A DNA stretch of 32,000 bases from Planctomycetota bacterium (GCA_020425515.1 JAGQRI010000109.1:4397-36396), one strand, 5' to 3'. Shown: positions 4,872 to 32,000, numbered from the stretch's first letter. Notes: generated by a model not told the origin, from the letters alone. Made by a program: numbers and translations.

Positions 4872-5056
4872 GAATCTTCCTTCCTTAGCATTCCCCGCAG
4901 GCGGGGCCACACACCTGAGCCCTATATGCTACGTGAGACGGGGCGAATTGGGCATGATTTTCCGGGGCGCGCCGTTTGCATCACAACCGGGCGATTCTAT
5001 CGTTCGTTCCCGTAACAGCCGCCCCGGCGGCTTTATTCGCTTCAATGCGGAGCATC

Positions 5057-17513: not shown

Positions 17514-17572
17514 CACATGCACGCCGACGGTATTGAAAATTAACGGGTGATCAGGTGTAAGCGGAAGCCCGC

Positions 17573-17599
17573 TGAACCCACCCAACACTGGAAACGTAA
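17573..17599 (+). promoter_or_regulatory. Second ECF-type promoter candidate, in the sigma/anti-sigma gap
   Basis: TGAAC (17573-17577), a 17-nt spacer, then CGTAA (17595-17599). It lies 25 nt upstream of the anti-sigma ATG. Confidence 0.35.
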
Positions 17600-17623
17600 A
17601 GGCTGAAAGATCGGCCCTTTAGC

Positions 17624-19528
17624 ATGAATCAGGAACGCGCAGAATTGCTCATCAATCGCGCCGTCGACGGGATTGCCACCCGCGACGAGCGCGAACAGTT
17701 GGCCCGCGCCATGCGCGCCGACCCGTTGCTGCGTTCCGAATTCGAAGAACTGCAGACCGTTCATGCCTCCACGGAAAGCCTGTTCCGTCAGCTCTCACTG
17801 CCTGAGGATTTCTCGAAGCGCGTGATGCGCCGCGTGCAGGGCGCGGACGTCCCGGCCGACGAAAGCCTGGAAAACGTCCGCCTGCCGTCGCAGCGCCGCA
17901 CCAGCAAGATCCCGACGCCCGTGACACCGGCCCAGCGCCGCCGCGTCAGGGTGTACGCGATCATTGCGACTGTCAGCGCCGCCGCGGCGGTGATGCTGGC
18001 GATCGGCGTGCTCAGCGGCTTCTTTGCCCGCGCCGGCATCGGCACATCGGGCGCGGAAACGGTCATTCCGAACAACGAAAAAGAAGTGGCTGATGGACGT
18101 CGGGGAGGGCCCGACACGGGAGAGATAAACCGCACCGTCTCTCCCACCCATCAGCCACTTGCAAACTCAGGCGACGGCAGCGCGAACAAAACCGACGGCG
18201 CCGACCCCAAGGTCGAGCAGCCGAAGGTGACGCCGCCCGCGCCGCAACAGCCCAAGGGCTCTGAAGACGTCCAGCCCAACGATGAACCGCAGCCGGAAGA
18301 CGTCGTCAAAAAGCCCGAAGGCGAACAGCCCGGACCGGTCGTGCCAAAGCCCGAACCCGAGAAACCGGAAGGCGGGGGGCTGATCGACAACGGCAAGCCG
18401 GACACCGGCGAAGTAAAGCCCGAGCCGGAACAGAAGCCCGAAGGCATCGTCGAAACCGAGCCGAAAAAGGAAAACGCCACGCAAGTCACGCCGGCGCCCG
18501 AGCGCACGAAGCTCGGCAAGGTGGCCGGCATCCTTTCGGGCCGCGTCGAGGTCTCAACCGACAACGAAAACTGGACCCGCCTCAGCGAGAGCCAGGAGAT
18601 TCGCCAGGGCGACCACATCCGCACCAGCCAGGGCGGCAACGCGCTGCTGCTGCTTGATTCAGGCAGCGTGACGCTCGGCCACGACACGCAGGTGGCGATC
18701 AGCAACGCGAGTTCGGTTGCGCTGGAAGACGGCATCGTCTCGCTTGACCGCGACTCGAACCACACCGGCGACCTGGACGTGGTGGTCGATGACTACACCG
18801 TGCACGTCAGCTTCGGTTGCGCGCTCATTGAGCGCAAGCGCCGCGGGCTCAGCGTGGCCAAGTCGGTCGGCTTTGCCAGCCTCAGCCACGACGAGTTCGG
18901 CAGCGTATTGCTGGACACCGACTCGGGCTACGAGATCGAGGCCGAGTTCGGCAAGGTTGCCGACGAAGCCCGCAAGAAGATCTTCAAGCTGCCCGACTGG
19001 TCGAGCGAAGCCCGCAGCCAGATCGTGATGATGAACCTGGATTCCACTCTCACGACCCGCGAATTCGGCGTACGCGAGCGCAGCTACGTCACCTCACGTA
19101 TGCCGGGCGGAGTCGAGAAGCTGGTCGCACTGCCGACCACGACCGAGTCCGTAAGCGCGTTCCTGAAAGACGTCATCAACAACGACAAGCTGAACGGCGC
19201 GGCGATCATCAAGGTGCTCGGCGAAGTCCAGCTTGCCTACAACGAAGTCACCGAGCTCGAACCGGACGTGATCAACGGGCACGCGGGGCGCGCGGCGCTG
19301 GTCGCCAAGGACTACGACCAGTGGCGCGAGTACTTCTGGCGCCTGATGCGCCCGCCCGTCGAGCCCAAGAAACAGCCGACGAGCACCACCACCGAAACGG
19401 AATGCCCGAACGCCAACAAGGACAAGCTCAAGCGGGTGGATAACCCGCCGCGCAAGCCGATCGTGAAGAAGGTACCGGTTCCGACTCCTGACAAGTCTGA
19501 AGAAGAAGAACCATCGAACAAGAACTGA
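17624..19528 (+). CDS. Transmembrane anti-sigma factor with Pro/Glu/Lys-rich spacer, FecR-like domain and large uncharacterised C-terminal region
   Basis: It sits next to the ECF sigma gene. The helical N-terminus has no HxxxCxxC zinc motif. The TM helix is VYAIIATVSAAAAVMLAIGVLSGFFA. About 100 aa of PEPEKPEG/KPEPEQKPEG-type repeats follow. The FecR-like segment reads GRVEVSTDNENWTRLSESQEIRQGDHIRTSQGGNALLLLDSGSVTLGHDTQV. Confidence 0.8.
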   Translation: MNQERAELLINRAVDGIATRDEREQLARAMRADPLLRSEFEELQTVHASTESLFRQLSLPEDFSKRVMRRVQGADVPADESLENVRLPSQRRTSKIPTPVTPAQRRRVRVYAIIATVSAAAAVMLAIGVLSGFFARAGIGTSGAETVIPNNEKEVADGRRGGPDTGEINRTVSPTHQPLANSGDGSANKTDGADPKVEQPKVTPPAPQQPKGSEDVQPNDEPQPEDVVKKPEGEQPGPVVPKPEPEKPEGGGLIDNGKPDTGEVKPEPEQKPEGIVETEPKKENATQVTPAPERTKLGKVAGILSGRVEVSTDNENWTRLSESQEIRQGDHIRTSQGGNALLLLDSGSVTLGHDTQVAISNASSVALEDGIVSLDRDSNHTGDLDVVVDDYTVHVSFGCALIERKRRGLSVAKSVGFASLSHDEFGSVLLDTDSGYEIEAEFGKVADEARKKIFKLPDWSSEARSQIVMMNLDSTLTTREFGVRERSYVTSRMPGGVEKLVALPTTTESVSAFLKDVINNDKLNGAAIIKVLGEVQLAYNEVTELEPDVINGHAGRAALVAKDYDQWREYFWRLMRPPVEPKKQPTSTTTETECPNANKDKLKRVDNPPRKPIVKKVPVPTPDKSEEEEPSNKN

Positions 19529-19624: not shown

Positions 19625-22168
19625 CTAGTCCTGCTCGTCCTTCGCCTTCTGCAGCCATTGGCGAATGTGCTCACGGATCGCTTCGTAGGGCGGGTCACGG
19701 TCCAGCGCCGTTTCGAACTTCTTCTCGGCCAGGTCGTACTTTTCCCGCAGGAACGCCAGCCGCCCCTCATAGTAGGCCGTCTCAAACGACTTCGGGTTCA
19801 GGTTCACCAGCGTGCGCACGGCAACGCTTGCCTGTTCCAGGTCTTCATCGTCCACGTAGCCGCGTGCGAAGTCGCACTGGTCGCGGAAGGCCTTCAGGTC
19901 CTCGTACTCTTCGCCGTGCGGGTCGCGCGGCAGGAACATCTTCTTGATCGGACGCATGCTGACGGCAGCACCCGGCCCGGCCGCCAGCGCACGGGCCACG
20001 GGCACGTAAACGTATTCGCCGTAGGTGTGAGGTGCAGCGGACACCCACATCTCGCCGGTCGTCACGTTGATGATCACGGAATGGCAGCAGATGCCCGCGT
20101 CGATGGCGTTGCGGTTGCCGAGCCCGAGTTCCTTGTCGCCGCGCCCCTTGCGGTCGCGCAGGATGCTCAGCGCCACGTCACGGTCGATCTTGCCGTAGTT
20201 GCGATCCGTCAGCTCTTCCAGCCTTTGCCAGCGGTACGTCGTGGTCGCGCGTTCGACCTGCTCGATGTTGACGGGGTCGTCCTTCAGCGGCTCGGTCAAC
20301 ATGTGGTTGGTCTGCAGGATCAGCCCCGGTTTACCGGCCTCGCGCATGGCGCAGTGGTCGGGTGATTTCTCGATCACGACCGCCTTGCCGTCTTTGCGGC
20401 TGGCGACGAGGTAGGTGTCGCTGACGAACACCGGCGTGTCCTGGATGATCTTGTAGGCCTCGTCAATGTCGTGGGCCCGTTCCAGCACGCGCCGCACCAG
20501 CATCGAAACCGGTGTGCCGATGCGCCCGAACTCGGTCTCCGAAGTGCGGGCCGCGTTCACGTGGATGCTGACGCCCTCCGCGTTCATGCCGGTCACCGCG
20601 CCGGCCATGCCCGCCCAGGCCACGTGCACGTAGGCGATGCCGTCGTCAGGCCAGACGTAGATGACGGCCTTGTCCTGGTCGAATACGTCGCCGGCCTCGA
20701 AATCGAAGTTGCGCCCGACGATGATCTGGCCGTCCTTGCTGGCGTCGCCCCAGGCCGCGAAGCCGGTACAGCCGACGAAGTCGCTGGTGGTGACCAGTGG
20801 GTTGTCGATGAACATGTGGCTGATGTCGTGCGCCGCGTGGTAGTTGAGAATGCGGTGGTAAAGCGGCGCTTCGTCGGGGTAGTGATTTTCGCTGCCCTCG
20901 GTGAGCCCCAGGATTTCCAGCTTTTCGGCGTCGCTGACGTACTCCGGCAGGTTGCGGTTGTTGATCGCGACCATCTGCTTGGCCGCCCAGTAGCTGAAGT
21001 CGTTCGGCAGGAACTCACGTACCTTGGCCACCAGCAGCTTCTCTTGCTCGGCGGTCAGTTCGCGCGTGAGGCGGGCGTTGGCGTAGCCGCGCTCCCAGCG
21101 GTTGCCGGTCAGCCCCAGTTCGTGAATCCCGTCGTGGTCGCGCCGCCAGCTTTCGCCCAGCAGCTGGATTTCCATGTCGCCCATCGAGCGCGAGGTGATC
21201 TCCTCCTTGGCCAGCGCGCGGCTGCCGTCGTAGGTCGGCGGCTCGGCGATGCACCAGTTTTTGACGTACACCGAAACACTGACCAGCAACGCAATGAACA
21301 TCGCGACCGCAAACATCGCCAGGCGCGTCACCCAGCCCTGGATGCGCGGGTAGCTCGGCTTGCGTTTGGCGGCCCGCAGGTCGGCCAGTTCCTCCTTCAT
21401 GCGCGCCTGCACGCGCTGCTTCAGGTCGGCGGCGTCCTTGGGGTCTTTCAGCCCTTCCGTGCTGAACGGCTCGAGCACCTTGATCAGCGTGTCCGGGTGG
21501 TGCACCAGCGGGCTGCCCTTGCGCACGCAGGCGCCCGTGCCCTCCATGATCACCGGCACCACCGGCACCTGGGCGTCCACGGCCAGCACGAAGGCGCCGT
21601 TCTTGAAGCGGCGGATGCGCCCGTCCGGGCTGCGCGAACCCTCCGGGAACACCAGGATGCTGACGCCGTCCTTCAGCCAGTTGAGCGCCGTGTCGTAGCC
21701 GCGCGGCCGGTCGGCATCGGCTTCCTCGTTCGCTTCCTCGACCTTGATGTGCCGGGCCAGCTTGTTCAGCTCGCCCATCAGGGGATACTTGAACGGCCAG
21801 CCCTTGATCATCCAGCGCGCGTTCACGGGCAGCATCAGCGCCATCAGGATGTCTAGCGTCGACTGGTGGTTGCACACGATCACGCACGGTTTCGGGAACG
21901 CGCCGCGGCGCACGTTGACGTGGCGTTGCTGGCCAAATGGGAACAGGCGGAAGAACCAGCGGGCGATGCGCTTCTGCCCGACATAGAAAGCGTCGCCGCG
22001 ATGCCTGCAGAAGAACCGATCCGCGATCCAGTACGGCAACTCGAGCACGAACAGGAAGAAGGCGAGTTGCGTGCCCAGCAGGGCATACGCGCAGATGCTG
22101 CGCAGGACGTTCATCACCGGGTTCGACGGCGGCGGGTATTTGAATTCCGGTTCGGCGCTGTCCGCCAT
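19625..22168 (-). CDS. Fusion protein: lysophospholipid (PlsC/ApeD-like) acyltransferase, TM helix, peptidase-C45 / acyl-CoA:6-APA-acyltransferase-like Ntn-hydrolase domain, TPR-like C-terminus
   Basis: 847 aa from an ATG start. The acyltransferase motifs are NHQSTLD (HX4D, H101-D106) and FPEGSRS. TM helices lie at about aa 24-46 and 283-302. The Ntn-type context is VGC(467)TGFAAWG...IVGRNFDF...AWAGMAGAVTGMNAEGV. The C-terminal helical repeats read FETAYYEGRLAFLREKYDLAEKKFETALDRDP. Confidence 0.8.
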   Translation of the reverse strand: MADSAEPEFKYPPPSNPVMNVLRSICAYALLGTQLAFFLFVLELPYWIADRFFCRHRGDAFYVGQKRIARWFFRLFPFGQQRHVNVRRGAFPKPCVIVCNHQSTLDILMALMLPVNARWMIKGWPFKYPLMGELNKLARHIKVEEANEEADADRPRGYDTALNWLKDGVSILVFPEGSRSPDGRIRRFKNGAFVLAVDAQVPVVPVIMEGTGACVRKGSPLVHHPDTLIKVLEPFSTEGLKDPKDAADLKQRVQARMKEELADLRAAKRKPSYPRIQGWVTRLAMFAVAMFIALLVSVSVYVKNWCIAEPPTYDGSRALAKEEITSRSMGDMEIQLLGESWRRDHDGIHELGLTGNRWERGYANARLTRELTAEQEKLLVAKVREFLPNDFSYWAAKQMVAINNRNLPEYVSDAEKLEILGLTEGSENHYPDEAPLYHRILNYHAAHDISHMFIDNPLVTTSDFVGCTGFAAWGDASKDGQIIVGRNFDFEAGDVFDQDKAVIYVWPDDGIAYVHVAWAGMAGAVTGMNAEGVSIHVNAARTSETEFGRIGTPVSMLVRRVLERAHDIDEAYKIIQDTPVFVSDTYLVASRKDGKAVVIEKSPDHCAMREAGKPGLILQTNHMLTEPLKDDPVNIEQVERATTTYRWQRLEELTDRNYGKIDRDVALSILRDRKGRGDKELGLGNRNAIDAGICCHSVIINVTTGEMWVSAAPHTYGEYVYVPVARALAAGPGAAVSMRPIKKMFLPRDPHGEEYEDLKAFRDQCDFARGYVDDEDLEQASVAVRTLVNLNPKSFETAYYEGRLAFLREKYDLAEKKFETALDRDPPYEAIREHIRQWLQKAKDEQD

Positions 22169-22276
22169 TTCAGCCCTTTGTACCCACTTGCGTAATCACC
22201 CGTTGCGCGCGCAGAATAGGTTTATTCAGGGGTCGCTCGAGTACCAGTATCCGCGTCAAGGCGCGGCAGTATAAAT

Positions 22277-22519
22277 ATGACGACGGACAGCATCCGCAAG
22301 CAAGTCGATCAAATCGTCGCCGATGAGTTTGAACTCGACGCGGCCGCCATCACCCCGGGCAGCGACCTCTACGACGACCTCGGGCTCGACAGCCTTGACG
22401 CCATCGACCTTGTCGTGGCGCTTGAAAAGAACTTCGGCTTCAAGGTCGAGGAAGGCGCCGCCCGCAAGATCCGCAAACTGGAGCAGCTCTACGAGTTTGT
22501 CCAGGAGCGTGTTTCGTAG
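22277..22519 (+). CDS. Acyl carrier protein
   Basis: 80 aa. The phosphopantetheine-attachment motif is DDLGLDSLDAIDLV. It is monocistronic, sits divergent from the acyltransferase fusion, and is followed by hairpins. Confidence 0.9.
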   Translation: MTTDSIRKQVDQIVADEFELDAAAITPGSDLYDDLGLDSLDAIDLVVALEKNFGFKVEEGAARKIRKLEQLYEFVQERVS

Positions 22520-22541
22520 GGGCGGCCCCGTGTGGCCGCCC
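22520..22541 (+). terminator. Hairpin after ACP gene
   Basis: GGGCGGCC-ccgtgt-GGCCGCCC starts directly after the stop codon. The downstream U-tract is weak. Confidence 0.35.
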
Positions 22542-22559
22542 GTCCTTGCGTGATTCATC

Positions 22560-22581
22560 GGGTCGCCACGTGGCGCGACCC
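22560..22581 (-). terminator. Hairpin directly after the dehydratase stop (minus strand)
   Basis: GGGTCGC...GCGACCC arms flank an inner GCCACGTGGC palindrome. There is no U-tract. Confidence 0.3.
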
Positions 22582-22938
22582 CTACGCTACCCTCAGCGTG
22601 AATTCCGCCACGTCCTTGTCGCCTTCGCGGATCTGGGCCTTGACCTTGGTGCGCCCTTCCTCTGCCTCTTCCAGCGTCAGCGCCAGCGTGAGTTCGCGCC
22701 CCGGGCCGGTCGGGTTCATGAACTTGGCGCGGCTGACTTCAGCCAACTTCACTTCGCGTCCGAGCACGCGCCCGGCGAAGTGCACCGCCGCCGCCACCTG
22801 CACCACGGCCGGCAGCACCGGGCCGTCCGGGAAGTGCCCCTTGAAAAACAGTTCCTCGCCGCTGAAGCGCATGCGCGCACGCCCGGCCTCGCCGTCGAAT
22901 TCGAGTGTCGCGGCCTGCAGGTCGTCGGCGAGGCTCAT
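22582..22938 (-). CDS. Hot-dog fold 3-hydroxyacyl-ACP dehydratase (FabZ/ApeI/ApeP-like)
   Basis: Track ORF is 22582..23184. I prefer ATG 22938 (MSLADDLQAATLEF...), which overlaps the upstream stop as ATGA. It carries the FFKGHFPDGPVLPAV motif containing the catalytic His. Confidence 0.8.
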   Translation of the reverse strand: MSLADDLQAATLEFDGEAGRARMRFSGEELFFKGHFPDGPVLPAVVQVAAAVHFAGRVLGREVKLAEVSRAKFMNPTGPGRELTLALTLEEAEEGRTKVKAQIREGDKDVAEFTLRVA

Positions 22939-23738
22939 CCGTCTTCCTCGGTTTCGAAGACTTTGTCGGGCCACGGCTTGTCGCGGGGCGTGAGTTCCGA
23001 GATGTCGATCGTCAGCTTGTACGGCGGGCCGTCTGATTGGACGCCCGCCTCGCGCAACACGATCACGGAAGGCAGCTCCAACCCGCCAAAATCCTTCCAC
23101 TCGTACTGGTTCACCCGGTACAGGTCGCGGCCGGACTGACGCAGGGCAAACCAGTCCACCCGTGGCGGATCGCCCACCAGCCATGCGACGAGATCGCCGC
23201 TGTGCCCGTGCAGAGTGGCGCGGGTGCCGTCATCCCGCGCACTGACGCTGACGGACTGGCTCCAGTTGACGGGAGGCTGAGAATCATCGGCCGACTGGTA
23301 GTAGTCCAGGAAGGTACGCGCGATATCGCGGGCGATGTTGTCCAGGATCTTCGCGTCGAACTCGTCGGCCGCGAAGACCCGGTTCAACTTGCCCCGGTCG
23401 TAGGCGATGTCGAACAGCTTCAAGCCTTGCTCGGTCATTCCCTGCAGGCGGAATCTGCCCGGCCGCTGCACCACGAGGTAGCCGACAAGCGTACGCGTCT
23501 GCACCCGGAAATCGATCGTTACGGTTTGCACGCACTTGAACTGTTGCGGCCAGCGGTTTTCGAAAACCGTGTCCGCGGCCTGGCTGCTCAAGGCGGGCGT
23601 CCGCGCAGGCTTCAGACGCTTGTAAGGGTCCGTCTCGGCGCAGGCCGACAATACCGCCAGGGTCACAACGAAGCCAATCAACACGGCAGTGCGGCGCGGA
23701 AGCACCGACCCAACGGCGGTTGATCTGTGTCGGCGCAT
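22935..23738 (-). CDS. Lipoprotein, ApeN(DUF3261)- or LolA-like by position (fold unverified)
   Basis: Track ORF is 22935..23855. I prefer ATG 23738, giving MRRHRSTAVGSVLPRRTAVLIGFVVTLAVLSAC with the lipobox LSAC. It lies immediately downstream of the MMPL exporter, as in ape clusters. Confidence 0.7.
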   Translation of the reverse strand: MRRHRSTAVGSVLPRRTAVLIGFVVTLAVLSACAETDPYKRLKPARTPALSSQAADTVFENRWPQQFKCVQTVTIDFRVQTRTLVGYLVVQRPGRFRLQGMTEQGLKLFDIAYDRGKLNRVFAADEFDAKILDNIARDIARTFLDYYQSADDSQPPVNWSQSVSVSARDDGTRATLHGHSGDLVAWLVGDPPRVDWFALRQSGRDLYRVNQYEWKDFGGLELPSVIVLREAGVQSDGPPYKLTIDISELTPRDKPWPDKVFETEEDG

Positions 23739-23768
23739 CCGCGCCTCGGCAATACCGATACCGGCATT

Positions 23769-23793
23769 CCCCCGGCAGCCAAGCTGCCGGGGG
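23769..23793 (-). promoter_or_regulatory. Strong intercistronic hairpin between the MMPL and lipoprotein genes
   Basis: CCCCCGGCAG-ccaag-CTGCCGGGGG is a perfect 10-bp GC-rich stem. A second small hairpin, TGCGCG-ctc-CGCGCA, lies at 23805-23821. Confidence 0.5.
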
Positions 23794-23844
23794 CTAATGC
23801 TGTTTGCGCGCTCCGCGCGCACGACGCCGTATTTTGAGTTGCGT

Positions 23845-26292
23845 TCAGTCGGCATGCCGTTTCATCTCCAGCAGGGTCGGTACTACGGCCAGTGTCAGCA
23901 CCAACGCGCTGGTCACGCCGATGGCCGTCGTGACGCCGACGCTGAACAAGGCCGGGTGCTGCGCCAGCGCCATTGAGCCGAAGCCGAACAGCGTGGTCAG
24001 CGCCGCCACCAGCACGCCCGCGCCCGCGTGTTTCAAACGCTCGATTGCCTGCTCCGGCGACTCTGAACCACGATAGGTCTGCACGAAGAAAATGCCGTAA
24101 TCAATACCGAGCCCGGCGATGAACACCGTCACCAGCGTGTTGATGATGTTGAACGGAATCCCCAGCGCCCCCATCAGCCCCAGCGTCCAGACCATGCCGC
24201 CCGCCACGGGCACCAGCGCAATCGCCACTTCGCGCGGGTTGCCGAACGTCAGCCACAGCACGACCAGCACCAGCAGCAGGCTCAATCCGCCCATCAGCAG
24301 CAGGTCGTGGCGAATGAACTCGATCATGCGCCCCACGAAGGCGGCCTTGTTCAACACGATCGCCGCGGGCTCGCGCGCTTTCAGCTCGCCCAGCTTTGAC
24401 GCGTCAAGAGTCGCCGTGGTGCCGATATACCAGCGCCCGTCCTGCTGGCTGACGAAGTTCCCCAGCAAGAGCCACACAGGACGCTTCTGGATCTCGTTGG
24501 CATCCAACAACGGCGGGTCTTCGGGCAGCTCCAGCTTGTCGAAAAACGCCTTGAGCGCCTTCGGGCTGACTTTCAGTTCGCGATCCGGGTTGTTCGGATT
24601 CTTCACGCCGACGCTGCCGATCAGCTTCTTCACGCCCTCGATCCGCTGCGGGCTCCAGAAACGGCGCCAGCGGGCTACGTTATCGCGCTGCGTCTGAGCC
24701 GCGGGCAGCACCCAGGCAGCGCTTTCATACTTCGCGCCGAGTTCATGCAGGTCGTGTGCCGCGAGGTCGTTCTGGCGCAGGGCCTGGTCCAGCGTGTCGC
24801 CGCCGACCACCACCAGGGTGCGGCTGAGCGTCTCCTGGCCGAAGGTCGTCTCGACCAGCCGCTCCGATTCGCGCGTGGCCTGGCTTTTGCCGTCAAGATG
24901 CGTGACGTCGCCATCGAAACCCACGCTCGGCAGGAAGCAGGCCAGCGCAACCGTCACGACCGCCAGCACGCCCAGCACAGGCCAGCGCCCCTTGCGCCGC
25001 GCGCGCTGCATGCCGCCGATGGCATTGCTCACCAGCGACGACGCACCCGGCTTCGGGCCCATTTTTCGCAGCAGTTGCGGGCCGGCCGTGAAGGCGAATA
25101 CCAGCGAGCCCGCAATGCCCGCGATGGCCATTTCGGAAAGCTGGTGCAGTCCGTCGAACTCCGAAAAGCGCAGCATGAAGATGGCCGAGATCGTGGTCAC
25201 CATCGCCACGAACCCCGGCCTGCCGACGTGCCGTAACGCTTGTCGCGCGCGGTCTTCGCGCTCGCCTTCCAGGCTGCCGTAAGTGGTCAGCAGGTGCACC
25301 GCGTAGTCCACCGAAATGCCCAGCAGCACCGCCGCAAACCCGGCCGTGATCGCGGACAGGTCGCCGTGCACCAGGCCTTGCGAGCCCAGCGCCATGCTGA
25401 AGCCGAAGCCGACACTGAGCAGTGTGATCAGGATCGGTGAAAGCGCGCGAAACGCCACGATGAACAAAAGCAGGATCGCAATCACAGAGGTCAGGATCGT
25501 CAGGTGCATGTCAGACTTCAGTACTTCGGCGTTGTCCACGCTGCTGCGGTGCGCGCCGATCACGTGCGGCGTGACGCCCTCGGGCAACTCGCCCAGTGCG
25601 GCGTCCATGGCCGCCATCAAATCGCGCCCCTTGCCGGTGTTGCTGCTGGGGAAATCCGCCTCAATCAGCAGGATGGCGAGCCGCCCATCCGCACTGAGAA
25701 TCCTTCCTTGCGCGTCGGTCTTGCCGGAGAAACCGCTGTTCAGGTGCTGGAAGCGCTTCAGCGTCAGCTCGTCAAAGCCGAACGGGTCGCCGCGAAATGT
25801 GTCGACAATCTTGATGCCCTCGGCGCCGGACTGCGCGTCCACGTACTTCTGCAGAGCGGGCCGGTAGTAGTGCTCGTTAAGTCGGCCTTCCACCTGCTGT
25901 TGCATCGACTCATCGAACAGCAGCGGCGCCTTGCCGAGGTAGAGCTTGCCGATGTCGTCCTGGGCGGACTGGTCGATGCGCGAGACGACCTCTTTGATGC
26001 CGTCCAGTTTGCGCAACGACTCGTCGGCCTGGTCCACGCCCCTGGCCAGTTTGACCGGGTCGTCACTTTCGAACGCCACCACGATGCGCTCCAGGCCTGA
26101 GTAGCGGTGCATCGCGAGCTGCGCCTCGGACACCACCGGCTCATCGTGCGGCAGCAGGGCGAATACATCTTCCTGGAAGTCGATGCGCAGTGCCCCCACC
26201 ACCGCAGCCGCCGCCAGGACCACGAACGCTGCCGGCAACACCACAGGCTTGCGCTTGAAGAAATCGAACAGTTGCTCAAAAGGGCCGCGCAT
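23845..26292 (-). CDS. MMPL/RND-superfamily exporter (ApeM-like)
   Basis: 815 aa. It has two 5-6-TM bundles, each preceded by a large soluble loop. The N-terminus is FFKRKPVVLPAAFVVLAAAAVVGAL. This is the typical two-half MMPL architecture. Confidence 0.85.
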   Translation of the reverse strand: MRGPFEQLFDFFKRKPVVLPAAFVVLAAAAVVGALRIDFQEDVFALLPHDEPVVSEAQLAMHRYSGLERIVVAFESDDPVKLARGVDQADESLRKLDGIKEVVSRIDQSAQDDIGKLYLGKAPLLFDESMQQQVEGRLNEHYYRPALQKYVDAQSGAEGIKIVDTFRGDPFGFDELTLKRFQHLNSGFSGKTDAQGRILSADGRLAILLIEADFPSSNTGKGRDLMAAMDAALGELPEGVTPHVIGAHRSSVDNAEVLKSDMHLTILTSVIAILLLFIVAFRALSPILITLLSVGFGFSMALGSQGLVHGDLSAITAGFAAVLLGISVDYAVHLLTTYGSLEGEREDRARQALRHVGRPGFVAMVTTISAIFMLRFSEFDGLHQLSEMAIAGIAGSLVFAFTAGPQLLRKMGPKPGASSLVSNAIGGMQRARRKGRWPVLGVLAVVTVALACFLPSVGFDGDVTHLDGKSQATRESERLVETTFGQETLSRTLVVVGGDTLDQALRQNDLAAHDLHELGAKYESAAWVLPAAQTQRDNVARWRRFWSPQRIEGVKKLIGSVGVKNPNNPDRELKVSPKALKAFFDKLELPEDPPLLDANEIQKRPVWLLLGNFVSQQDGRWYIGTTATLDASKLGELKAREPAAIVLNKAAFVGRMIEFIRHDLLLMGGLSLLLVLVVLWLTFGNPREVAIALVPVAGGMVWTLGLMGALGIPFNIINTLVTVFIAGLGIDYGIFFVQTYRGSESPEQAIERLKHAGAGVLVAALTTLFGFGSMALAQHPALFSVGVTTAIGVTSALVLTLAVVPTLLEMKRHAD

Positions 26293-26301
26293 ACCGTCTG
26301 T

Positions 26302-27816
26302 TTAGCTGCCTTTGCGCGCGGCGTCATCGGTTTGGCTGCGGACTTCGTCGATCAGGGCGTCCGTGCCGAGGATGCTGCCCGCTACGCCGAAGCCGGTTAC
26401 ACATGCACCGAGGATACCCGGCGTGCCGGTGCCCGCGCCGCTGACGTACAGCCCGCGGTAGCGCGTGCGGCGACGCACGCCGTTGCGACCCTGCGCGTTC
26501 ATGCCGGGCGCGACGCCGTAGATACCGCCGCGCGGATAGCCGGTGTAGTCGCGCAGTGTCAGGGGTGTCGAGGCGTCAACCACGTGCAGCCTGCCCCGCA
26601 GTTGCGGTATGCGCTGCTCGATCATGGCAACGATGTTGGCCGTCAGCTTTTCTTTCAGCGCCGTGTACTTCGCATCGCGCTTGAGTGTGCGCGTGTCCTG
26701 CCACTGCTCGAACCACTCCCAGCGAGCGCTGCCCATGGCACTGAATAGCTGGCGCCCGTTGGCAGGCGGGGGCAGGTTGACAATGGCGTCGGCCGGGCCG
26801 TCCATGGATGGCCGATAGAAACAGTCCGGGTCGTCGTCGCGCAGCAGGTAGTGGTTGCGTCCTGTCACGCCGGTCAGGTCAGCGCCGGGGTCAATCGTGC
26901 CATAGACAACAAACGCGCCAATACATTCCTCGGCATCGGCCATGCGTTGCCGCAGCACCCTGCGGTAGGCGTCATCGGGCAGCAGCTTCACGGCCACGCG
27001 CGGGTGCACGGCGAGGATGACTTCTTCAGCGCGCAGCACTTCGCCACCAGCCAACTCGACACCGCTGACCTTGTCGCCATCGACCAGTGTACGCTCCACC
27101 GGCGTGCGCAAGCGCAGCTCGCCACCGAGTTCGCGCAAACGGGCGACCAGCGGCTTTGTAATCGCGTCTCCCCCACCGTTGACGTAGTGCGGGCCCTCGA
27201 CGGCGCTGCCGATCACGGCGGCGTGAATCGCCAGCGGGACCTGCGCAGCGGGCACGGCATACAGCGACGACTGGGCGCAGATCAGTGAGCGCAGGCGCGG
27301 TGAAGCACCCAGCGAATCCAGGAATCCCTGCAGGCTGGTCTCGAACAATTCACGGTCGTACGCGCCTTCGGCCTCGGGGTTCAGCGTGTGCCAGTTGAGT
27401 GACGCTTCGACGCGCCGCATCTTTGCCACGTAGGCGTCCACAACGGCGGCTTCGTCCGGGCACTCGCGTTTCAGCGCAACTGCCAGGTTGTCCCATCCGA
27501 CGGGCACGCAGAAATCACCGCCGGGCAGGCTGATGCGGTCGAAACACTCGCGGTCGAGCGGCGTGGTCGGGACATCGACGCCCAGGTAGCAGAACAGCCG
27601 CCACATGATCTGGCCGGGATACAACGAACCGACATAGTGCACGCCGGTATCAAAACGGCACGGCCCGTCCGGCCCGCGGCGCTGGAACATCTGCATGCAG
27701 CCGCCGGGAATGTTGTGCGCTTCCAGCACCAACGGCTTGCGCCCGTGCTTCGCCAGCACGATGGCGGCGGAGAGTCCGCTGATGCCGGAACCGACAACTA
27801 TGCTGGAGTACGTCAC
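26302..27816 (-). CDS. FAD-dependent oxidoreductase, phytoene-desaturase (CrtI)/RetSat-like family
   Basis: It uses a GTG start. The N-terminal Rossmann motif is SIVVGSGISGLSAAIVLAKHGRKPLVLEAHNIPGGC. The C-terminal motif is GLYVSGAGTGTPGILGA. Its stop lies 9 nt before the MMPL start. Confidence 0.8.
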   Translation of the reverse strand: MTYSSIVVGSGISGLSAAIVLAKHGRKPLVLEAHNIPGGCMQMFQRRGPDGPCRFDTGVHYVGSLYPGQIMWRLFCYLGVDVPTTPLDRECFDRISLPGGDFCVPVGWDNLAVALKRECPDEAAVVDAYVAKMRRVEASLNWHTLNPEAEGAYDRELFETSLQGFLDSLGASPRLRSLICAQSSLYAVPAAQVPLAIHAAVIGSAVEGPHYVNGGGDAITKPLVARLRELGGELRLRTPVERTLVDGDKVSGVELAGGEVLRAEEVILAVHPRVAVKLLPDDAYRRVLRQRMADAEECIGAFVVYGTIDPGADLTGVTGRNHYLLRDDDPDCFYRPSMDGPADAIVNLPPPANGRQLFSAMGSARWEWFEQWQDTRTLKRDAKYTALKEKLTANIVAMIEQRIPQLRGRLHVVDASTPLTLRDYTGYPRGGIYGVAPGMNAQGRNGVRRRTRYRGLYVSGAGTGTPGILGACVTGFGVAGSILGTDALIDEVRSQTDDAARKGS

Positions 27817-27886
27817 GCGTTCATCAGAATGAACAAGAGCCCGAAGCGCAAGCGACGGGGTTTTGTCGCGGCGAAAGCGCCACGAC

Positions 27887-27906
27887 CACAGGCAGGACTG
27901 CCTGTG
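27887..27906 (-). promoter_or_regulatory. Hairpin directly after the ketosynthase stop
   Basis: CACAGGCAG-ga-CTGCCTGTG is a 9-nt perfect inverted repeat lying 4 nt downstream of the stop at 27910. Confidence 0.45.
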
Positions 27907-27909
27907 CCA

Positions 27910-29127
27910 CTACAGCTTTGACAGGATTATTGACGCGTTGGTCCCGCCGAAGCCAAAGCTGTTGATCAGTACGTTGGTCAACTGCTTGTCGACGGTCGCC
28001 GGCACGATGTTGATCTTCGCCGCGTCCTCTTCCTGCGCTTCAAAATTCAGGTTGGGCGCGATGAAACCGGCCTGCAGCATCAGCGCGCTGTAGAGGATTT
28101 CGCTGGCGCCGCTCATCCAGCACTCGTGGCCTGTCATGCCCTTGGTGCTGCTGACCGGGGTGTCCTCGCCGAAGATTTCGTTGATCGCCTCGGCCTCCTT
28201 GGCGTCGCCGATCGGCGTGCTGGTGGCATGCGCGTTGATATAGTCGATCGCGCCGGCATCCAGTTCCGCGTTGCCGAGCGCCATCTGCATCGCGCGTCGC
28301 GCGCCGCCACCGCTGGGCAGGGTCAGGTGCTCGCCGTCGCTGCTGAAACCGTAGCCGCGAACTTCGGCCAGCGGCTGGCCGCCGCGTGCTTTCAGATGAC
28401 TTTCGCTTTCCAGGATCAGGGCCGCCGCGCCGCCGCTGGGCACCAGGCCATCGCGCCCGCGGTCAAACGGGCGGCTGGCCTTAGACGGTTCGTCCTCGCG
28501 TTTGCTGAAGGTGCCGAGCGCGTCGAAGCTGGCCATCGACTCCCAGTTGATCTCCTGCATGCCGCCGGTGATGACGACATCCTGCAGGCCGGCGCGGATC
28601 AGCGTGAAGCCTTGCCCCACCGCATGCGCGCCGGACGCACAAGCAGCTGCCAGAGTCCACGCGGCGCCCTGCGTGCCGAGCAGAGCGTTCAGGTTCATGC
28701 TCGCCGTGCTGTTCATGCACTGGAAGATATAGCCGCTGCCGAGCTGCTGCGTGGTGCCGTCGCGCCGCACGGCATCGGCAACCTCGACGTTGGGGCCGCT
28801 GGTGCTGTCGTTGCCGATGATCAGCCCGACGCGCGGGTTACGCAGCGCGGCGGGGTCGATCCCGGCCTGCTCGATCGCCGTCAGTGCTGAAACCGCGCAC
28901 CACTGGGCGCTTTCGTGCATCGATTTGCGGGCTTTGCGGTCGAGCCGTGCCTTGGGGTCGAAGCCGTTGATCGCGCCGGTGAGCGCCGACCGGAAGCCAA
29001 GCTCGCGACGCGCTTCATCCAGCACCACGCCGCTGCGCCCTTCGCGCAACGCCGCCTCGATCTCGGCCAGCGTCGTGCCGAGACAGGAAACAGCCGCGAG
29101 ACCTGTGATGAATACGCGTTCCGTCAT
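27910..29127 (-). CDS. Beta-ketoacyl-ACP synthase (KAS I/II-type, ApeO/ApeR-like)
   Basis: Track ORF is 27910..29193. I prefer ATG 29127 (MTERVFITGLAAVSCLG). The active-site Cys is in LAAACASGAHAVG, and the two His are in YINAHATSTPIGD and KGMTGHECWMSGA. Confidence 0.9.
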   Translation of the reverse strand: MTERVFITGLAAVSCLGTTLAEIEAALREGRSGVVLDEARRELGFRSALTGAINGFDPKARLDRKARKSMHESAQWCAVSALTAIEQAGIDPAALRNPRVGLIIGNDSTSGPNVEVADAVRRDGTTQQLGSGYIFQCMNSTASMNLNALLGTQGAAWTLAAACASGAHAVGQGFTLIRAGLQDVVITGGMQEINWESMASFDALGTFSKREDEPSKASRPFDRGRDGLVPSGGAAALILESESHLKARGGQPLAEVRGYGFSSDGEHLTLPSGGGARRAMQMALGNAELDAGAIDYINAHATSTPIGDAKEAEAINEIFGEDTPVSSTKGMTGHECWMSGASEILYSALMLQAGFIAPNLNFEAQEEDAAKINIVPATVDKQLTNVLINSFGFGGTNASIILSKL

Positions 29128-29165
29128 TGGTGAGTTGTACCTGCCACTGAACCAAACAGCGAATG

Positions 29166-29220
29166 ACCAATAACCAATTGCGGGGTAGATCACCCGTCGA
29201 ATTGGAAATTGGCTATTGGT
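29166..29220 (-). repeat. AT-rich CCAAT/ATTGG inverted-repeat element in the KR-KS intercistronic spacer
   Basis: ACCAATAACCAATT (29166-29179) pairs with AATTGGCTATTGGT (29207-29220). On the transcribed minus strand this is a 14-bp stem containing one G.U pair. Inside it is a small CGGG/CCCG stem. There are five CCAAT/ATTGG pentamers at 7-nt spacing. Confidence 0.55.
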
Positions 29221-29244
29221 AACTGGCTGTTCAACAACCTGCCC

Positions 29245-29970
29245 CTACATGTACATGCCGCCATTTACCCCGAGCACTTGCCCGGTGATGTAGCCGGCCT
29301 CGTCGCCAGCCAGGAAGCTTACCGCGGCGGCGATCTCGTCCGGCGTGCCGAAGCGCCCGAGCGGCACCGCCTTGGCCAATTCCTCTTTGGGCAGCTCCTT
29401 GACCATGTCGGTCTCGACAAATCCGGGAGCAACCACGTTCACGGTGATCTTGCGGCTGGCGATTTCCTTCGCGAGTGACTTGCAGGCGCCGATCAGCCCC
29501 GCCTTGCTGGCCGAGTAGTTTACCTGTCCCGGATTGCCGGCCTGTCCACTGACGCTGCTGATCGCAACAATGCGCCCGCTGCGGCGCCTAAGCATGCCGC
29601 GCAGGCAGACCTTGGTCACGTGATAGAAGCCGCCGAGATTGGTGTTGATGACACCGTGCCATTCGTCGTGGCCGGTCATGGCAAACAGCCCGTCACGCGT
29701 GATGCCGGCGTTGCTGACGACGACGTCGGGCGCGCCCTCGGAGTCGATCAGCGGCTCAAGCGCCGCCTTCACCGCCTCGGCGTCGCCGACGTCAAAGCCG
29801 ACCGGCACGGCGCTGCCGCCGGCGGATTCGATCTCGCTGCACAGGCTCTCGGCCTCGTCCTTGCTGCGCCCGTAGTTGACCCAGACCCGATAGCCGTCCT
29901 TCGCCAGACGCGCGGCGATAGCGCGCCCGATGCCCCTGGATGCCCCCGTGACCAATGCAATCTTCGACAA
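29245..29970 (-). CDS. 3-oxoacyl-ACP reductase (FabG/ApeQ-like SDR)
   Basis: It has a TTG start at 29970 with GGAGA 7 nt upstream. The N-terminus (M)SKIALVTGASRGIGRAIA carries TGxxxGxG. The catalytic motifs are YSASKAG and NVVAPGF. Confidence 0.9.
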   Translation of the reverse strand: MSKIALVTGASRGIGRAIAARLAKDGYRVWVNYGRSKDEAESLCSEIESAGGSAVPVGFDVGDAEAVKAALEPLIDSEGAPDVVVSNAGITRDGLFAMTGHDEWHGVINTNLGGFYHVTKVCLRGMLRRRSGRIVAISSVSGQAGNPGQVNYSASKAGLIGACKSLAKEIASRKITVNVVAPGFVETDMVKELPKEELAKAVPLGRFGTPDEIAAAVSFLAGDEAGYITGQVLGVNGGMYM

Positions 29971-29994
29971 GCTGAACTCTCCGTGCTCAAGCGC

Positions 29995-30024
29995 TTTACA
30001 CTATGCGCAAAGGCTGCGTATATT
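29995..30024 (+). promoter_or_regulatory. Sigma-70-type promoter candidate for the ACP-KS operon
   Basis: TTTACA (29995-30000), an 18-nt spacer, then TATATT (30019-30024). It lies in the 104-nt divergent region between the KR and ACP genes. Confidence 0.4.
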
Positions 30025-30074
30025 AGCTGGCTTGGCGGGCGTCGAGTAGGGCGCACCAGCCGTGGGGCGGCAGC

Positions 30075-30350
30075 ATGCAAGGATCCGAAATCGTGGAAGC
30101 CCTGGTTACTGAGCTGAAAACACTGATCATCGAGCACCTGAACCTCGAAGACGTAGATCCCGAAAAGGTCGACCCGCAGGCCCCGCTGTTCGGCGAAGGG
30201 CTCGGGCTCGACAGCGTCGACGCCCTCGAGCTGGTGATGCTGATGGAAACTACGTACGGCGCGAAGATCGAGTCGTCCGAAGTCGGCAAGAAGGCTTTTG
30301 CCACGCTGAACAGCCTGGCGCAATTCGTCCAGGAAAACCGCAAGTCGTAG
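30075..30350 (+). CDS. Acyl carrier protein
   Basis: 91 aa. The attachment motif is GEGLGLDSVDALELV. Confidence 0.9.
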   Translation: MQGSEIVEALVTELKTLIIEHLNLEDVDPEKVDPQAPLFGEGLGLDSVDALELVMLMETTYGAKIESSEVGKKAFATLNSLAQFVQENRKS

Positions 30351-30361
30351 CGGTCCGTCCC

Positions 30362-31606
30362 ATGTCTCAACAAGCGCCCGTGCAGCCCGTAGCAATCACC
30401 GGCGTCGGCGTCATCGGCGCTTTCGGTCGCGGCATGGATGCATTGCACACCGCCCTGACTGAAGGACGCGAAGGCGTGGGCCGACTCACGCTCTGGGAGT
30501 CGGCACTCGGCGAGTTCCCCGTCGGGCAGTACCGCGGCAACCTGGACAAAGACCTGAGCGACGTTCCCGGCATGACGCCGCGGCTGCTTAAGCGGTTGTC
30601 GCGCTCGGATGCCCTGGCGCTGGTCGCGGCCCATGAGGCGGTTGGGCAGTCCGGCGCCGATGTTTCCACGGCCGGCGCGTACGTAGGCCAAAGCGTTTGC
30701 GGAACGCTCACCAGCGAAGCGCTGTACGTGGAGGCGCGCAGGCGCGCAAAGGCCGGCGACACCACGAAGCTGGATCTCACCCCGGCTTTCGTGCACGAGG
30801 GCGCGAACACTCTGGACCGGCTCGCCGACGTGTTCACCTTGCAGGGGCCGACCGTCAGCTACATGACCGCCTGCAGCAGCGCGGCCAATGCCATCGGGCT
30901 GGCGGCAGACGCCATCCGTGCCGGGCGCTGCGACGTGATGCTGGCCGGCGGCTCGGACAGCCTTTCGCGCATCGCCTTTAACGGGTTTTGCAGCCTCAAA
31001 GTCGTCAGCCCGGACGGGCCGCGCCCCTTCGACAGCGAGCGCCAGGGCATGATGGTAGGCGAAGGCGCGGGGGTGCTGGTGCTGGAATCGCTTGAGCATG
31101 CGAAGAAGCGAGGCGCCAAAATTCTCGGCTACGTCAGCGGCTACGGCCATTCCTGCGACGCCCACCACCTGACCGCGCCGCACCCGGAAGGCAAAGGCGC
31201 AATAGCGGCGATGCGTGAGGCGCTGGCGATGGCGGGGATTGGCGCTTCCGACGTCGGCTACATCAACGCCCATGGCACGGCAACGCTCGACAACGACAGA
31301 ACCGAGGCGCGAGCAATCAGTGAAGTGTTCGGCGAGGTGGCCGTCCCGGTCAGCAGCACCAAGCGCTACATGGGACATACGCTGGCCGCGGCGGGCGGTG
31401 TGGAGGCGGCGGTATCGCTGTGGGCATTGACCAGGGGATTGCTGCCGGCAAACCTCGGGCTGCGCAACCCGCTGGCTGACGCGAAGCTCGACCTGGTTGC
31501 GGAAACGCGCGAGGCCCGGAGTTTGCGTCACGTGCTTTCGAACAGTTTCGGTTTCGGCGGCAACAACGCCGCACTGGTTTTCACGGGGAGCGACCATGGA
31601 CCCTGA
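30362..31606 (+). CDS. Beta-ketoacyl synthase (type II, Cys-His-His intact)
   Basis: The catalytic residues are in MTACSSAANAIG (Cys), YINAHGTATLDND (His) and YMGHTLAAAG (His). The C-terminus ends NSFGFGGNNAALVF. Confidence 0.9.
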   Translation: MSQQAPVQPVAITGVGVIGAFGRGMDALHTALTEGREGVGRLTLWESALGEFPVGQYRGNLDKDLSDVPGMTPRLLKRLSRSDALALVAAHEAVGQSGADVSTAGAYVGQSVCGTLTSEALYVEARRRAKAGDTTKLDLTPAFVHEGANTLDRLADVFTLQGPTVSYMTACSSAANAIGLAADAIRAGRCDVMLAGGSDSLSRIAFNGFCSLKVVSPDGPRPFDSERQGMMVGEGAGVLVLESLEHAKKRGAKILGYVSGYGHSCDAHHLTAPHPEGKGAIAAMREALAMAGIGASDVGYINAHGTATLDNDRTEARAISEVFGEVAVPVSSTKRYMGHTLAAAGGVEAAVSLWALTRGLLPANLGLRNPLADAKLDLVAETREARSLRHVLSNSFGFGGNNAALVFTGSDHGP

Positions 31607-32000
31607 ACGACAGCAGAAACTCAACTGGCTGTACGAGCAGCTTTTCCTGGCGGCTGACCAGGTGCACGGCGCGCTCGGGCGCAATCTGCCGGCCGAGACG
31701 TATCACGAGTGCTTCGCGCACGAACTTGAGCTGATGGGGCGCAAGGTGCAGCGCGACGTGGCGGTGCCGATCCTGTACCGCGACCACAAGGTGGACAGGG
31801 GCGTCGTGATCCCGCTGATCGTGGACGGGCTCGTGGCCGTCAGCGTCTGGAGCATCGAGAAGCTGACCCAGTTCCATGACCAGAACATGCAGTCGATCCT
31901 GCGGGTGTCCGGGCTGCCGCTGGGAATCGTGGTGAACTTCAGCGTGCCCAGCGTGCGCGGCGCGATGCACCGCATCATGAACCCGCAACCGAGAGTGTAG
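31596..32000 (+). CDS. GxxExxY family protein (PD-(D/E)XK-related)
   Basis: Track ORF is 31497..32000. I prefer ATG 31596 (MDPERQQKLNWLYE...), which overlaps the KS 3' end by 11 nt. The signature NLPAETYHECFAHELELMGRKVQRDVAVPILYRDHKV matches the GxxExxY pattern apart from Gly being replaced by Leu. The stop TAG falls exactly at 31998-32000. Confidence 0.75.
   Translation: MDPERQQKLNWLYEQLFLAADQVHGALGRNLPAETYHECFAHELELMGRKVQRDVAVPILYRDHKVDRGVVIPLIVDGLVAVSVWSIEKLTQFHDQNMQSILRVSGLPLGIVVNFSVPSVRGAMHRIMNPQPRV

Follow-up and report, generated by a model that had tools for sequence, protein, structure and literature searches.

A pared-down aryl-polyene/flexirubin-family lipid gene cluster with an LPLAT-C45 fusion in a Planctomycetota bacterium

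To our knowledge, the full product of an aryl-polyene lipid pathway is known only from Xenorhabdus. The aryl-polyene (ape) clusters of Escherichia coli CFT073 and Xenorhabdus doucetiae comprise apeA-R (PMC8253772; bioRxiv 10.1101/2020.12.19.423268), and their core has been listed as the ketosynthases (KS) ApeO and ApeR, the acyl carrier proteins (ACP) ApeE and ApeF, the chain-length factor ApeC, the dehydratases ApeI and ApeP, the ketoreductase ApeQ and the transporter ApeM (Grammbitter et al., 2020, bioRxiv 10.1101/2020.12.19.423268). The Xenorhabdus lipids contain a conjugated C26:5 fatty acyl part, for which synthesis on ApeF and transfer to lyso-phosphatidylglycerol by ApeD were proposed (bioRxiv 10.1101/2020.12.19.423268). 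Flexirubin-type clusters of Bacteroidota are the other close comparison. In cultured Phycisphaerae, arylpolyene matches of the antiSMASH type have been reported without further study, and for Planctomycetota as a whole we found aryl-polyene matches in the literature only as antiSMASH counts. Here we describe a cluster of this kind in a stretch of 32,000 nucleotides from a Planctomycetota bacterium (GCA_020425515.1 JAGQRI010000109.1:4397-36396), hereafter called the window. The cluster occupies positions 19625-32000 and is cut by the window end.

Searches of the window open reading frames (ORFs) with the Pfam and NCBIfam profile libraries (scores are given in bits with respect to the model cut-off) gave support to each of eleven real genes in this region, and their third-position GC was 0.78-0.89, compared to 0.78-0.90 for the real genes of the window as a whole, which has about 64% GC. 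This agrees with an earlier note on this DNA, which had named the domains of eleven adjacent genes. The note had divided them into three transcription units; by strand, however, they form four blocks, namely LPLAT-C45 (minus), ACP1 (plus), the run from FabG to the hot-dog gene (minus) and ACP2 onward (plus). The features are as follows:

19625-22168, minus strand: LPLAT-C45-TPR fusion protein, 847 amino acids (PF01553, 2e-22; PF03417, 6e-19; NF040521, 191 bits, cut-off 85)
22277-22519, plus strand: ACP1, ApeF-like (PF00550, 1e-12; serine of the DSL motif present)
22582-22938, minus strand: ApeI-like/FabA-like hot-dog 3-hydroxyacyl-ACP dehydratase, 118 amino acids (PF22818, 33 bits, cut-off 28.5; PF07977; GHFP motif)
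22935-23855, minus strand: DUF3261/LolB-like lipoprotein, ApeN-like (PF11659, 23.2 bits, cut-off 22.3, a marginal match)
23845-26292, minus strand: MMPL/RND-type exporter, ApeM-like, candidate lipid exporter (PF03176, 1e-33)
26302-27816, minus strand: CrtI/CrtD/RetSat-like FAD flavoenzyme (Amino_oxidase and NAD_binding_8 matches; GxGxxG)
27910-29127, minus strand (ORF to 29193): KS1, FabB-like ketosynthase (PF00109 and PF02801)
29245-29970, minus strand: FabG/FlxB/ApeQ-like 3-ketoacyl-ACP reductase (NF004200, 318 bits, cut-off 273; YxxxK)
29971-30074: divergent intergenic region between the FabG and ACP2 operons, with a sigma-70-like site at 29995-30024 (plus)
30075-30350, plus strand: ACP2, ApeE-like carrier protein (NF006617/PRK09184, 90 bits, cut-off 70)
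30362-31606, plus strand: KS2, ApeO-type elongating ketosynthase (intact triad; clade placement)
31596-32000, plus strand: PD-(D/E)XK_3/GxxExxY protein, 134 amino acids (PF13366, 2e-19; TIGR04256, 74 bits, cut-off 35)

Because of the profile matches, the best matches to the CFT073 Ape proteins, the KS phylogeny and synteny with aryl-polyene-like clusters of five other phyla, we firmly assign this locus, as far as sequence comparison can tell, to the aryl-polyene/flexirubin family of type II polyketide synthase (PKS)-like lipid clusters, as a pared-down and planctomycete-specific member. The earlier note had likewise read it as a variant type II fatty acid synthase/PKS cluster of aryl-polyene or flexirubin type truncated by the window end. 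In BLAST comparisons with the ape proteins of E. coli CFT073 and the fab proteins of strain K-12, the best match of ACP2 was ApeE (45% identity, E 5e-23), that of ACP1 was ApeF (35%, E 1e-13, ahead of AcpP), that of the hot-dog protein ApeI (32%, E 9e-12), that of the LPLAT domain ApeD (30%), that of the lipoprotein ApeN (23%, E 6e-5) and that of the MMPL protein ApeM (22%, E 3e-16). Catalytic serines (DSL/DSV) are present in both ACPs. The reductase was 50% identical to E. coli FabG and 48% to ApeQ, and scored 309 bits with the FlxB equivalog model NF053542, under its cut-off of 340; the LolB2_flexi model NF053540 gave 17 bits, under a cut-off of 60. The MMPL gene is directly followed by the DUF3261 lipoprotein gene, which is the apeM-apeN order of E. 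coli. The ApeD-like LPLAT, the two ApeE/F-like ACPs, the ApeQ-like reductase of the short-chain dehydrogenase/reductase (SDR) family and the ApeM-ApeN order were therefore all correctly recognised in the note, the last with the marginal PF11659 score given above. The hot-dog dehydratase had been called ApeI/P-like, of which the ApeI part stands and the ApeP part does not: no ApeP-like dehydratase (PF22817) was found in the window or in the related loci L089, L105 and L106, so that the ApeI and ApeP pair is absent from them. With the exception of this ApeP-type enzyme, every part of the core list from the literature has a counterpart, KS1 being a candidate for that of ApeR and the chain-length factor lying beyond the window.

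The two ketosynthases were placed in a neighbour-joining tree of 64 KS proteins (bootstrap out of 100, capped distance), a comparison with FabF, FabB and the Ape enzymes that the earlier note had proposed. In the alignment both keep Cys, His, Lys and His, and the intact Cys-His-His triads claimed in the note are thus present. KS2 and its planctomycete orthologues fall in a 100/100 clade with ApeO and the KS of aryl-polyene/flexirubin-like clusters, a clade that excludes FabF and FabB, including those of the ordinary planctomycete fabF loci L072 and L076. KS2 is 36% identical to both FabF and ApeO, and its next-best relatives are KS of Verrucomicrobiota aryl-polyene-like clusters (44-48% identity), as compared to 37-39% for planctomycete fabF products. 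KS1 belongs to a 99/100 FabB-like clade with the KS of the Dyadobacter flexirubin-type (L110), Bacteroidia aryl-polyene (L014) and Halodesulfovibrio (L108) clusters; E. coli FabB is sister to this clade (98/100), followed by the ApeR group (95/100). In L110 (FlxB-type) and L108 (FabG) an SDR gene stands directly before the KS of this clade. Although KS1 has an intact triad, it does not group with the initiating KS of the ApeR type, and its identity to E. coli FabB (43%) exceeds that to ApeR (33%); judged from the tree and these identities, it appears to be FabB-like rather than ApeR-like. The ApeO/R-like description of the pair in the note is therefore right for KS2 and probably not for KS1.

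The resemblance of KS1 to FabB, together with a reductase that passes the housekeeping FabG model, might be taken to mean that the locus encodes the primary fatty acid synthase of the organism. We consider this very improbable and rejected it on gene content and KS phylogeny: the cluster contains no FabD, FabH, enoyl reductase, FabZ-size dehydratase or acc gene, KS2 lies outside the FabF clade, other Planctomycetota carry ordinary fabG-acpP-fabF loci (L072, L076), the genes are tied to MMPL, DUF3261 and LPLAT genes as in aryl-polyene clusters, and some lineages are without KS1.

As a separate observation, a Candidatus Brocadiaceae contig (L109, 10001-21263) carries an anammox cluster whose first gene encodes a KS 58% identical to KS1. 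The order there is ACP, LpxL-like acyltransferase, radical SAM/SPASM protein with a carrier domain, two B12-radical SAM proteins, AMP-ligase, 4HBT thioesterase and a further KS. By this arrangement it looks like a ladderane-candidate cluster, and its first three genes match the flexirubin-type clusters L110 and L014.

The chain-length-factor-type KS that the note had reported as absent from the window is indeed not there, and begins shortly after it. The last 665 bases of the window recur with 100% identity on contig L086, which extends 795 bases further; a new gene, KS3, starts on it 175 bases after the window end. In the full-length orthologue of L092, 85% identical, Arg-Asp replaces Ala-Cys and both His are absent, as in ApeC; because of these substitutions KS3 is, by its sequence, a KS of the chain-length-factor type. 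It shows a weak match to PF13723, has 370 amino acids as compared to the 240 of ApeC, and gives no direct BLAST match with the latter. The region past L086 was reconstructed from relatives at 63-85% identity. In L092/L093 (KS3 85%), L091 and L004 (KS2 63%) KS2 is followed by the GxxExxY gene, KS3 and a gene for a UbiA-family prenyltransferase, after which the ATP synthase genes (atpD) come in L092/L093 and L004; in L089 (KS1 89% and fusion protein 74% identical) the GxxExxY gene is followed by KS3, within which the sequence ends. The note had supposed that missing parts might lie beyond base 32000. This is true of KS3; aryl-starter, thioesterase, glycosyltransferase and methyltransferase genes are not among what follows, as the clusters of the relatives end with the UbiA-like gene and atpD. 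The UbiA-like protein exceeds the cut-off of the general ubiA_other model only, and stays under the MqnP and UbiA equivalog cut-offs. Its gene lies next to atpD, and in L095 and L106 none follows KS3. The enzyme may be a housekeeping quinone prenyltransferase.

Five other lineages (L089, L092/L093, L004+L105, L106 and L095) were examined for gene content. In H3_PLA7 the cluster is split in two loci, L105 and L004, more than 10 kb apart on one 883-kb contig. The export and attachment half comprises MMPL, lipoprotein, ApeI-like, ACP1 and LPLAT-C45 genes beside sigma factor (extracytoplasmic function, ECF) and rpsD neighbours like those of the window, and the synthesis half comprises the CrtI-like gene, KS1 and FabG, then ACP2, KS2, GxxExxY, KS3 and UbiA genes beside atpD. 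That each half keeps the corresponding flanking genes of the window type points to a single rearrangement that joined or separated them. L106, whose fusion protein is 51% identical, retains KS3, GxxExxY, KS2, an ACP, FabG, MMPL, lipoprotein, ApeI-like and LPLAT-C45 genes and lacks KS1, the CrtI-like gene, ACP1 and UbiA, all together. L095 contains only lipoprotein, MMPL and FabG, then ACP2, KS2 and KS3. Because L106 drops these genes jointly, and from comparison with the L095 and H3_PLA7 variants, the cluster can be divided into a core of nine genes and an accessory module formed by KS1, ACP1 and the flavoenzyme, with or without UbiA.

None of the clusters of the five other lineages contained an AMP-ligase, ammonia-lyase, 4HBT thioesterase, GT2-DUF2062 protein, methyltransferase or enoyl reductase. 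In the window and its close relatives, BLAST and Pfam searches gave no counterpart of ApeJ (glycosyltransferase/acyltransferase), ApeK (thioesterase), ApeB (methyltransferase), ApeL (LolA) or ApeG, and profile searches of the cluster genes gave no match to enoyl-reductase families. A lyase or FabH-like DarB (flexirubin tyrosine ammonia-lyase, darA/darB) was likewise not found, every ORF of the cluster being accounted for. In contrast, a ligase or ammonia-lyase is encoded in the full clusters of Bacteroidales (L015) and Dyadobacter (L110), in the latter with PF00221.

These absences bear on whether the locus belongs to a true aryl-polyene pigment pathway, in which a 4-hydroxybenzoate or 4-coumarate starter would be activated by an enzyme encoded elsewhere and extended on ACP2 by KS2 and KS3. 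The 45% identity of ACP2 to ApeE and the position of KS2 in the ApeO-type clade agree with such a pathway; the split cluster of H3_PLA7 means that its genes need not adjoin, and a UbiA-family enzyme of the 4-hydroxybenzoate prenyltransferase type adjoins KS3 in the closest lineages. However, no ApeH-type ligase, ammonia-lyase or PaaK-type ligase is present in or beside the cluster, either in the window or in the five lineages, whereas L015 and L110 carry one, and the first KS and partner pair (KSa and partner), the thioesterase and the methyltransferase of aryl clusters are all missing. For these reasons we regard a pigment of this kind as unlikely, though not negligibly so.

With respect to the flexirubin-type clusters (Dyadobacter sp. 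NIV53, L110; Bacteroidia loci L014 and L015, from metagenome-assembled genomes, MAGs), the window cluster shares the FlxB-like SDR directly followed by a FabB-like KS of the KS1 clade, the ApeE-like and ApeF-like ACPs, the ApeO-type KS followed by a chain-length-factor-type KS, the ApeI-like dehydratase and the CrtI-like flavoenzyme; a C45 gene occurs also in L015. An LPLAT domain and an MMPL-type part are common to both as well, but the two are fused in the flexirubin type, whereas here LPLAT is fused to C45. Moreover, the window cluster is without ammonia-lyase/AMP-ligase, ApeP-like dehydratase, 4HBT thioesterase, first KS pair, polysaccharide deacetylase, LolA, GT2-DUF2062, LpxL-like acyltransferase, methyltransferase and halogenase. 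In comparison with the E. coli and Xenorhabdus clusters it has counterparts of ApeC (KS3), D, E, F, I, M, N, O and Q and lacks those of ApeA, B, G, H, J, K, L and P; an enoyl reductase is absent from both. It adds the C45 domain, the CrtI-like enzyme and the GxxExxY gene to the E. coli set. The earlier note was correct in that these three are absent from the E. coli-type cluster, but the C45 and CrtI/RetSat-like parts are not unique to this locus, as they recur in other phyla. A third comparison is offered by clusters of Verrucomicrobiota and marine sediment MAGs (L006-L011, L098/L099), where a standalone C45+TPR protein, which shares 36-40% identity with the C-terminal two thirds of the fusion, is encoded with ACP, KS/chain-length-factor, ApeI-like, LPLAT and MMPL genes. 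Unlike the window, these loci also carry ApeP-like, 4HBT, second KS pair, polysaccharide deacetylase, GT2-DUF2062 and methyltransferase genes; their C45 is unfused, and no CrtI-like or KS1 gene lies within 10 kb. The cluster family is well known, and what is undescribed is the reduced, apparently aryl-less set and the LPLAT-C45 fusion.

The flavoenzyme scored 119 bits with the CrtD model (cut-off 550) and 87 bits with crtI_fam (cut-off 238), which leaves it outside the CrtI family proper. Its predicted structure (pLDDT 94.8) has as closest PDB fold the gamma-carotene desaturase 4REP (TM-score 0.75, 18% identity), and a sequence search against the PDB gave only weak matches, to CrtI, PDS and MAO. 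JGI places its close homologues in a retinol saturase orthologue group. Homologues with 24-35% identity are found in aryl-polyene-like clusters of Apibacter, Halodesulfovibrio aestuarii, Dyadobacter, Bacteroidia and Citreicoccus (loci with clustered CrtI-like homologues: L107, L108, L110, L014, L015 and L025). In the literature on phytoene/CrtI-type genes in flexirubin clusters, or on C45 with aryl polyenes, we found no study of these accessory genes.

The retinol saturase grouping would suit, as the product, a long special fatty acid, hydroxylated or for the most part saturated through the RetSat-like flavoenzyme or a housekeeping enoyl reductase. The cluster would then be a line devoted to elongating, attaching and exporting an outer-membrane lipid that is no pigment. 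The sister position of KS1 to FabB is compatible with this, as is the presence of LPLAT, MMPL and LolB-like parts with no tailoring enzymes. On the other hand, the flavoenzyme is missing from L106 and L095, which keep the core, and therefore cannot be the reductase of the cycle; in addition, all characterised relatives of the set of KS, chain-length factor, ApeI and ketoreductase make polyenes. We hold a saturated product to be distinctly unlikely.

The 847-residue fusion protein consists of an anchor helix (24-42), the LPLAT domain (HQSTLD and FPEGSRS, with HX4D and FPEG intact), a transmembrane helix (284-302), the C45 domain and C-terminal TPR. The C45 part, an N-terminal nucleophile (Ntn) domain that exceeds the NF040521 cut-off, has a nucleophile site at Gly-Cys467 and the motif RNFD; GC[TSN] and RNFD are invariant in an alignment of 17 C45 homologues. 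A sequence search of this region against the PDB gave only a weak match, to a NAAA beta-subunit (E 5e-4). With Lys/Arg-rich segments on both sides, the LPLAT domain is expected in the cytoplasm; helix 284-302 would then lead the polypeptide out across the membrane. In standalone C45 homologues a single N-terminal helix is preceded by 4-7 Lys/Arg and followed by 0-1; for helix 2 of the fusion the numbers are 4 and 2. Since the standalone homologues all have a Lys/Arg-rich N-terminus and then a single helix, the C45 and TPR parts are predicted, by the positive-inside rule only, to be periplasmic. A role of C45 as a cytoplasmic starter-loading acyltransferase, by analogy with phenylacetyl-CoA:6-aminopenicillanic acid (6-APA) acyltransferase, was set aside, as every homologue has an N-terminal signal-anchor and the charges around it point the domain outward.

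Hundreds of standalone proteins of about 570 amino acids, with C45 and TPR, are homologous to the C-terminal two thirds of the fusion. The genes examined sit in aryl-polyene-like clusters of marine sediment MAGs (L098, L099), Verrucomicrobiota (L006-L011) and Bacteroidales (L015), and in the Verrucomicrobiota loci L006 and L009 the C45 gene directly precedes the LPLAT gene. The LPLAT-C45 fusion itself was found in about 40 protein clusters, and all those with an organism name are from Planctomycetes/Planctomycetota. By this distribution the fusion is, of the C45 and CrtI-like additions, the only Planctomycetota-specific feature, C45 as such recurring in other phyla. The joining of C45 to an acyltransferase is a gene-fusion hint that both act on one lipid. 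In two proteins C45 is fused instead to a polysaccharide deacetylase, beside a chain-length-factor gene; one of them, of 1034 amino acids (P0045; L097, 10001-13105), is encoded directly after that gene. This fusion hints that, in the full aryl-polyene-like clusters, the substrate of C45 may be a sugar head group after de-N-acetylation. We also noted a conserved Cys-x-x-x-Pro-Pro after the anchor helix, at residues 303-312 of the fusion and in all C45 homologues examined (P0045-P0116), for example NWCIAEPP, TCFASPP and WYCTARPP.

Taken together, the gene content suggests that the cluster probably makes an exported unsaturated membrane lipid. More specifically, we consider it fairly likely that a non-aryl, polyunsaturated acyl lipid would be built, esterified, exported and remodelled. 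KS2, with its catalytically dead partner KS3, would elongate the chain on the ApeE-like ACP2. A second line may use the FabB-like KS1 with the ApeF-like ACP1, its product being modified by the flavoenzyme. Each round would include FabG-type ketoreduction and ApeI-like dehydration, and because the cluster has no enoyl reductase the chains would stay unsaturated, probably conjugated. The starter is most likely an ordinary acyl group, because none of the five other lineages has an aryl-activating enzyme in its cluster, and the product would be nearer to the conjugated fatty acyl part of the Xenorhabdus lipids (C26:5) than to the aryl chromophore. The CrtI/RetSat-like flavoenzyme may desaturate, saturate or isomerise double bonds of the chain. 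The cytoplasmic LPLAT domain would then esterify the chain to a lysophospholipid, as proposed for ApeD, and the MMPL transporter and the LolB-like lipoprotein would carry the lipid to the outer membrane, where the lipoprotein would receive it. After export, the C45 Ntn domain, on the periplasmic side, might transfer or remove an acyl group.

Several points weigh against this scheme. The chemistry is read from gene content, clusters of this type having as yet no known product. The starter could be activated by genes at another place in the genome. ACP2, KS2 and KS3 correspond to the E. coli aryl-chromophore line (ApeE, ApeO and ApeC), a point in favour of an aryl starter. The chain could also be saturated by a housekeeping enoyl reductase or by the RetSat-like flavoenzyme, and the product would then be no polyene. 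Of the two dehydratases only the ApeI type is present, with no ApeP; in Xenorhabdus, ApeI and ApeP reportedly work as a complex. Finally, the positive-inside rule is the only ground for placing C45 in the periplasm.

In a stronger form of the non-aryl scheme, the aryl-polyene family would have an aryl-less branch, with this locus as its first example and a conjugated polyene acyl lipid as the only product. LPLAT-C45 would be a two-sided enzyme that loads the chain on a carrier phospholipid in the cytoplasm and, after MMPL export, transfers it by its periplasmic Ntn domain to an outer-membrane acceptor (e.g., an amine of a lipid, glycan or protein). This form is speculative, and we give it a low but appreciable probability. 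In mycobacteria the MmpL3 exporter delivers an acyl-carrier lipid and the extracytoplasmic antigen 85 moves the acyl group to the final acceptor. The order proposed here, LPLAT to MMPL to C45, follows an analogous logic, by analogy only, the transferase families being unrelated. If the two-sided enzyme is real, it would represent a step like that of MmpL3 and antigen 85, none of which has been described for aryl-polyene lipids.

Whatever the exact product, the locus is a natural minimal version of these clusters, which keeps the KS and chain-length-factor pair, a ketoreductase, one dehydratase, two ACPs, LPLAT, MMPL and LolB-like proteins and drops the aryl-head-group and sugar genes. Such a set helps to separate the genes of the conjugated acyl lipid from those of the chromophore. 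It also brings to attention a membrane-anchored C45 Ntn enzyme and a CrtI/RetSat-like flavoenzyme that are unstudied and yet recur across phyla in these clusters, and provides a concrete candidate for an outer-membrane lipid pathway in Planctomycetota, whose envelope lipids are poorly known.

The GxxExxY gene is complete, its last base being exactly 32000, and its start overlaps the KS2 stop by 11 bases. The slot between KS2 and KS3 is kept in five planctomycete lineages (window 31596-32000; L089 400-804; L092 9428-9835; L004 11263-11673; L106 2162-2563; also L086, with the same sequence as the window), with protein identity down to 41%, while L095 has no such gene. The family is usually regarded as a passenger, for which so conserved a slot is odd. 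The protein was also considered as a pathway enzyme, a role that we rejected, the conserved position being its sole support; the gene is probably a passenger.

For three genes the likely true start gives a shorter protein. The true start of KS1 is likely at 29127 (MTERVF, matching the L089 orthologue), shorter than the ORF, and that of the hot-dog gene is likely at 22938, the L089 orthologue having 116 amino acids; the lipoprotein probably starts at 23738, which gives a signal peptide with the lipobox LSAC. In the divergent intergenic region, the site TTTACA-18-TATATT has 10/12 matches to the sigma-70 pattern and is the sole such site in 12.6 kb, a count not above chance. More generally, promoter and terminator scans gave counts not above chance expectation, and an Rfam scan of the window gave no matches.

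Upstream of 19625 lie only unrelated housekeeping genes and an ECF sigma/anti-sigma pair, and for this reason the left border of the cluster is taken as real. The pair (16953-19528) encodes an ECF sigma factor and a 634-residue anti-sigma protein with a long Pro/Glu/Lys-rich linker, and is convergent to the LPLAT-C45 gene. It adjoins that gene also in L089, L090 and L105, but not in L106, and a regulatory tie to the cluster is possible. At the far end of the window, positions 1536-4910 (minus strand) encode a very large DsbD-like thiol:disulfide interchange protein of 1124 amino acids, with the DsbD N-terminal domain in two matched stretches, the DsbD membrane domain and thioredoxin-like regions at residues 322-414 and 997-1089. 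Next to it, at 1-1530 (minus strand), lies the gene of a GGDEF (GGEEF) diguanylate cyclase with an N-terminal sensor region, whose ORF runs off the window start at the C-terminal end of the protein.

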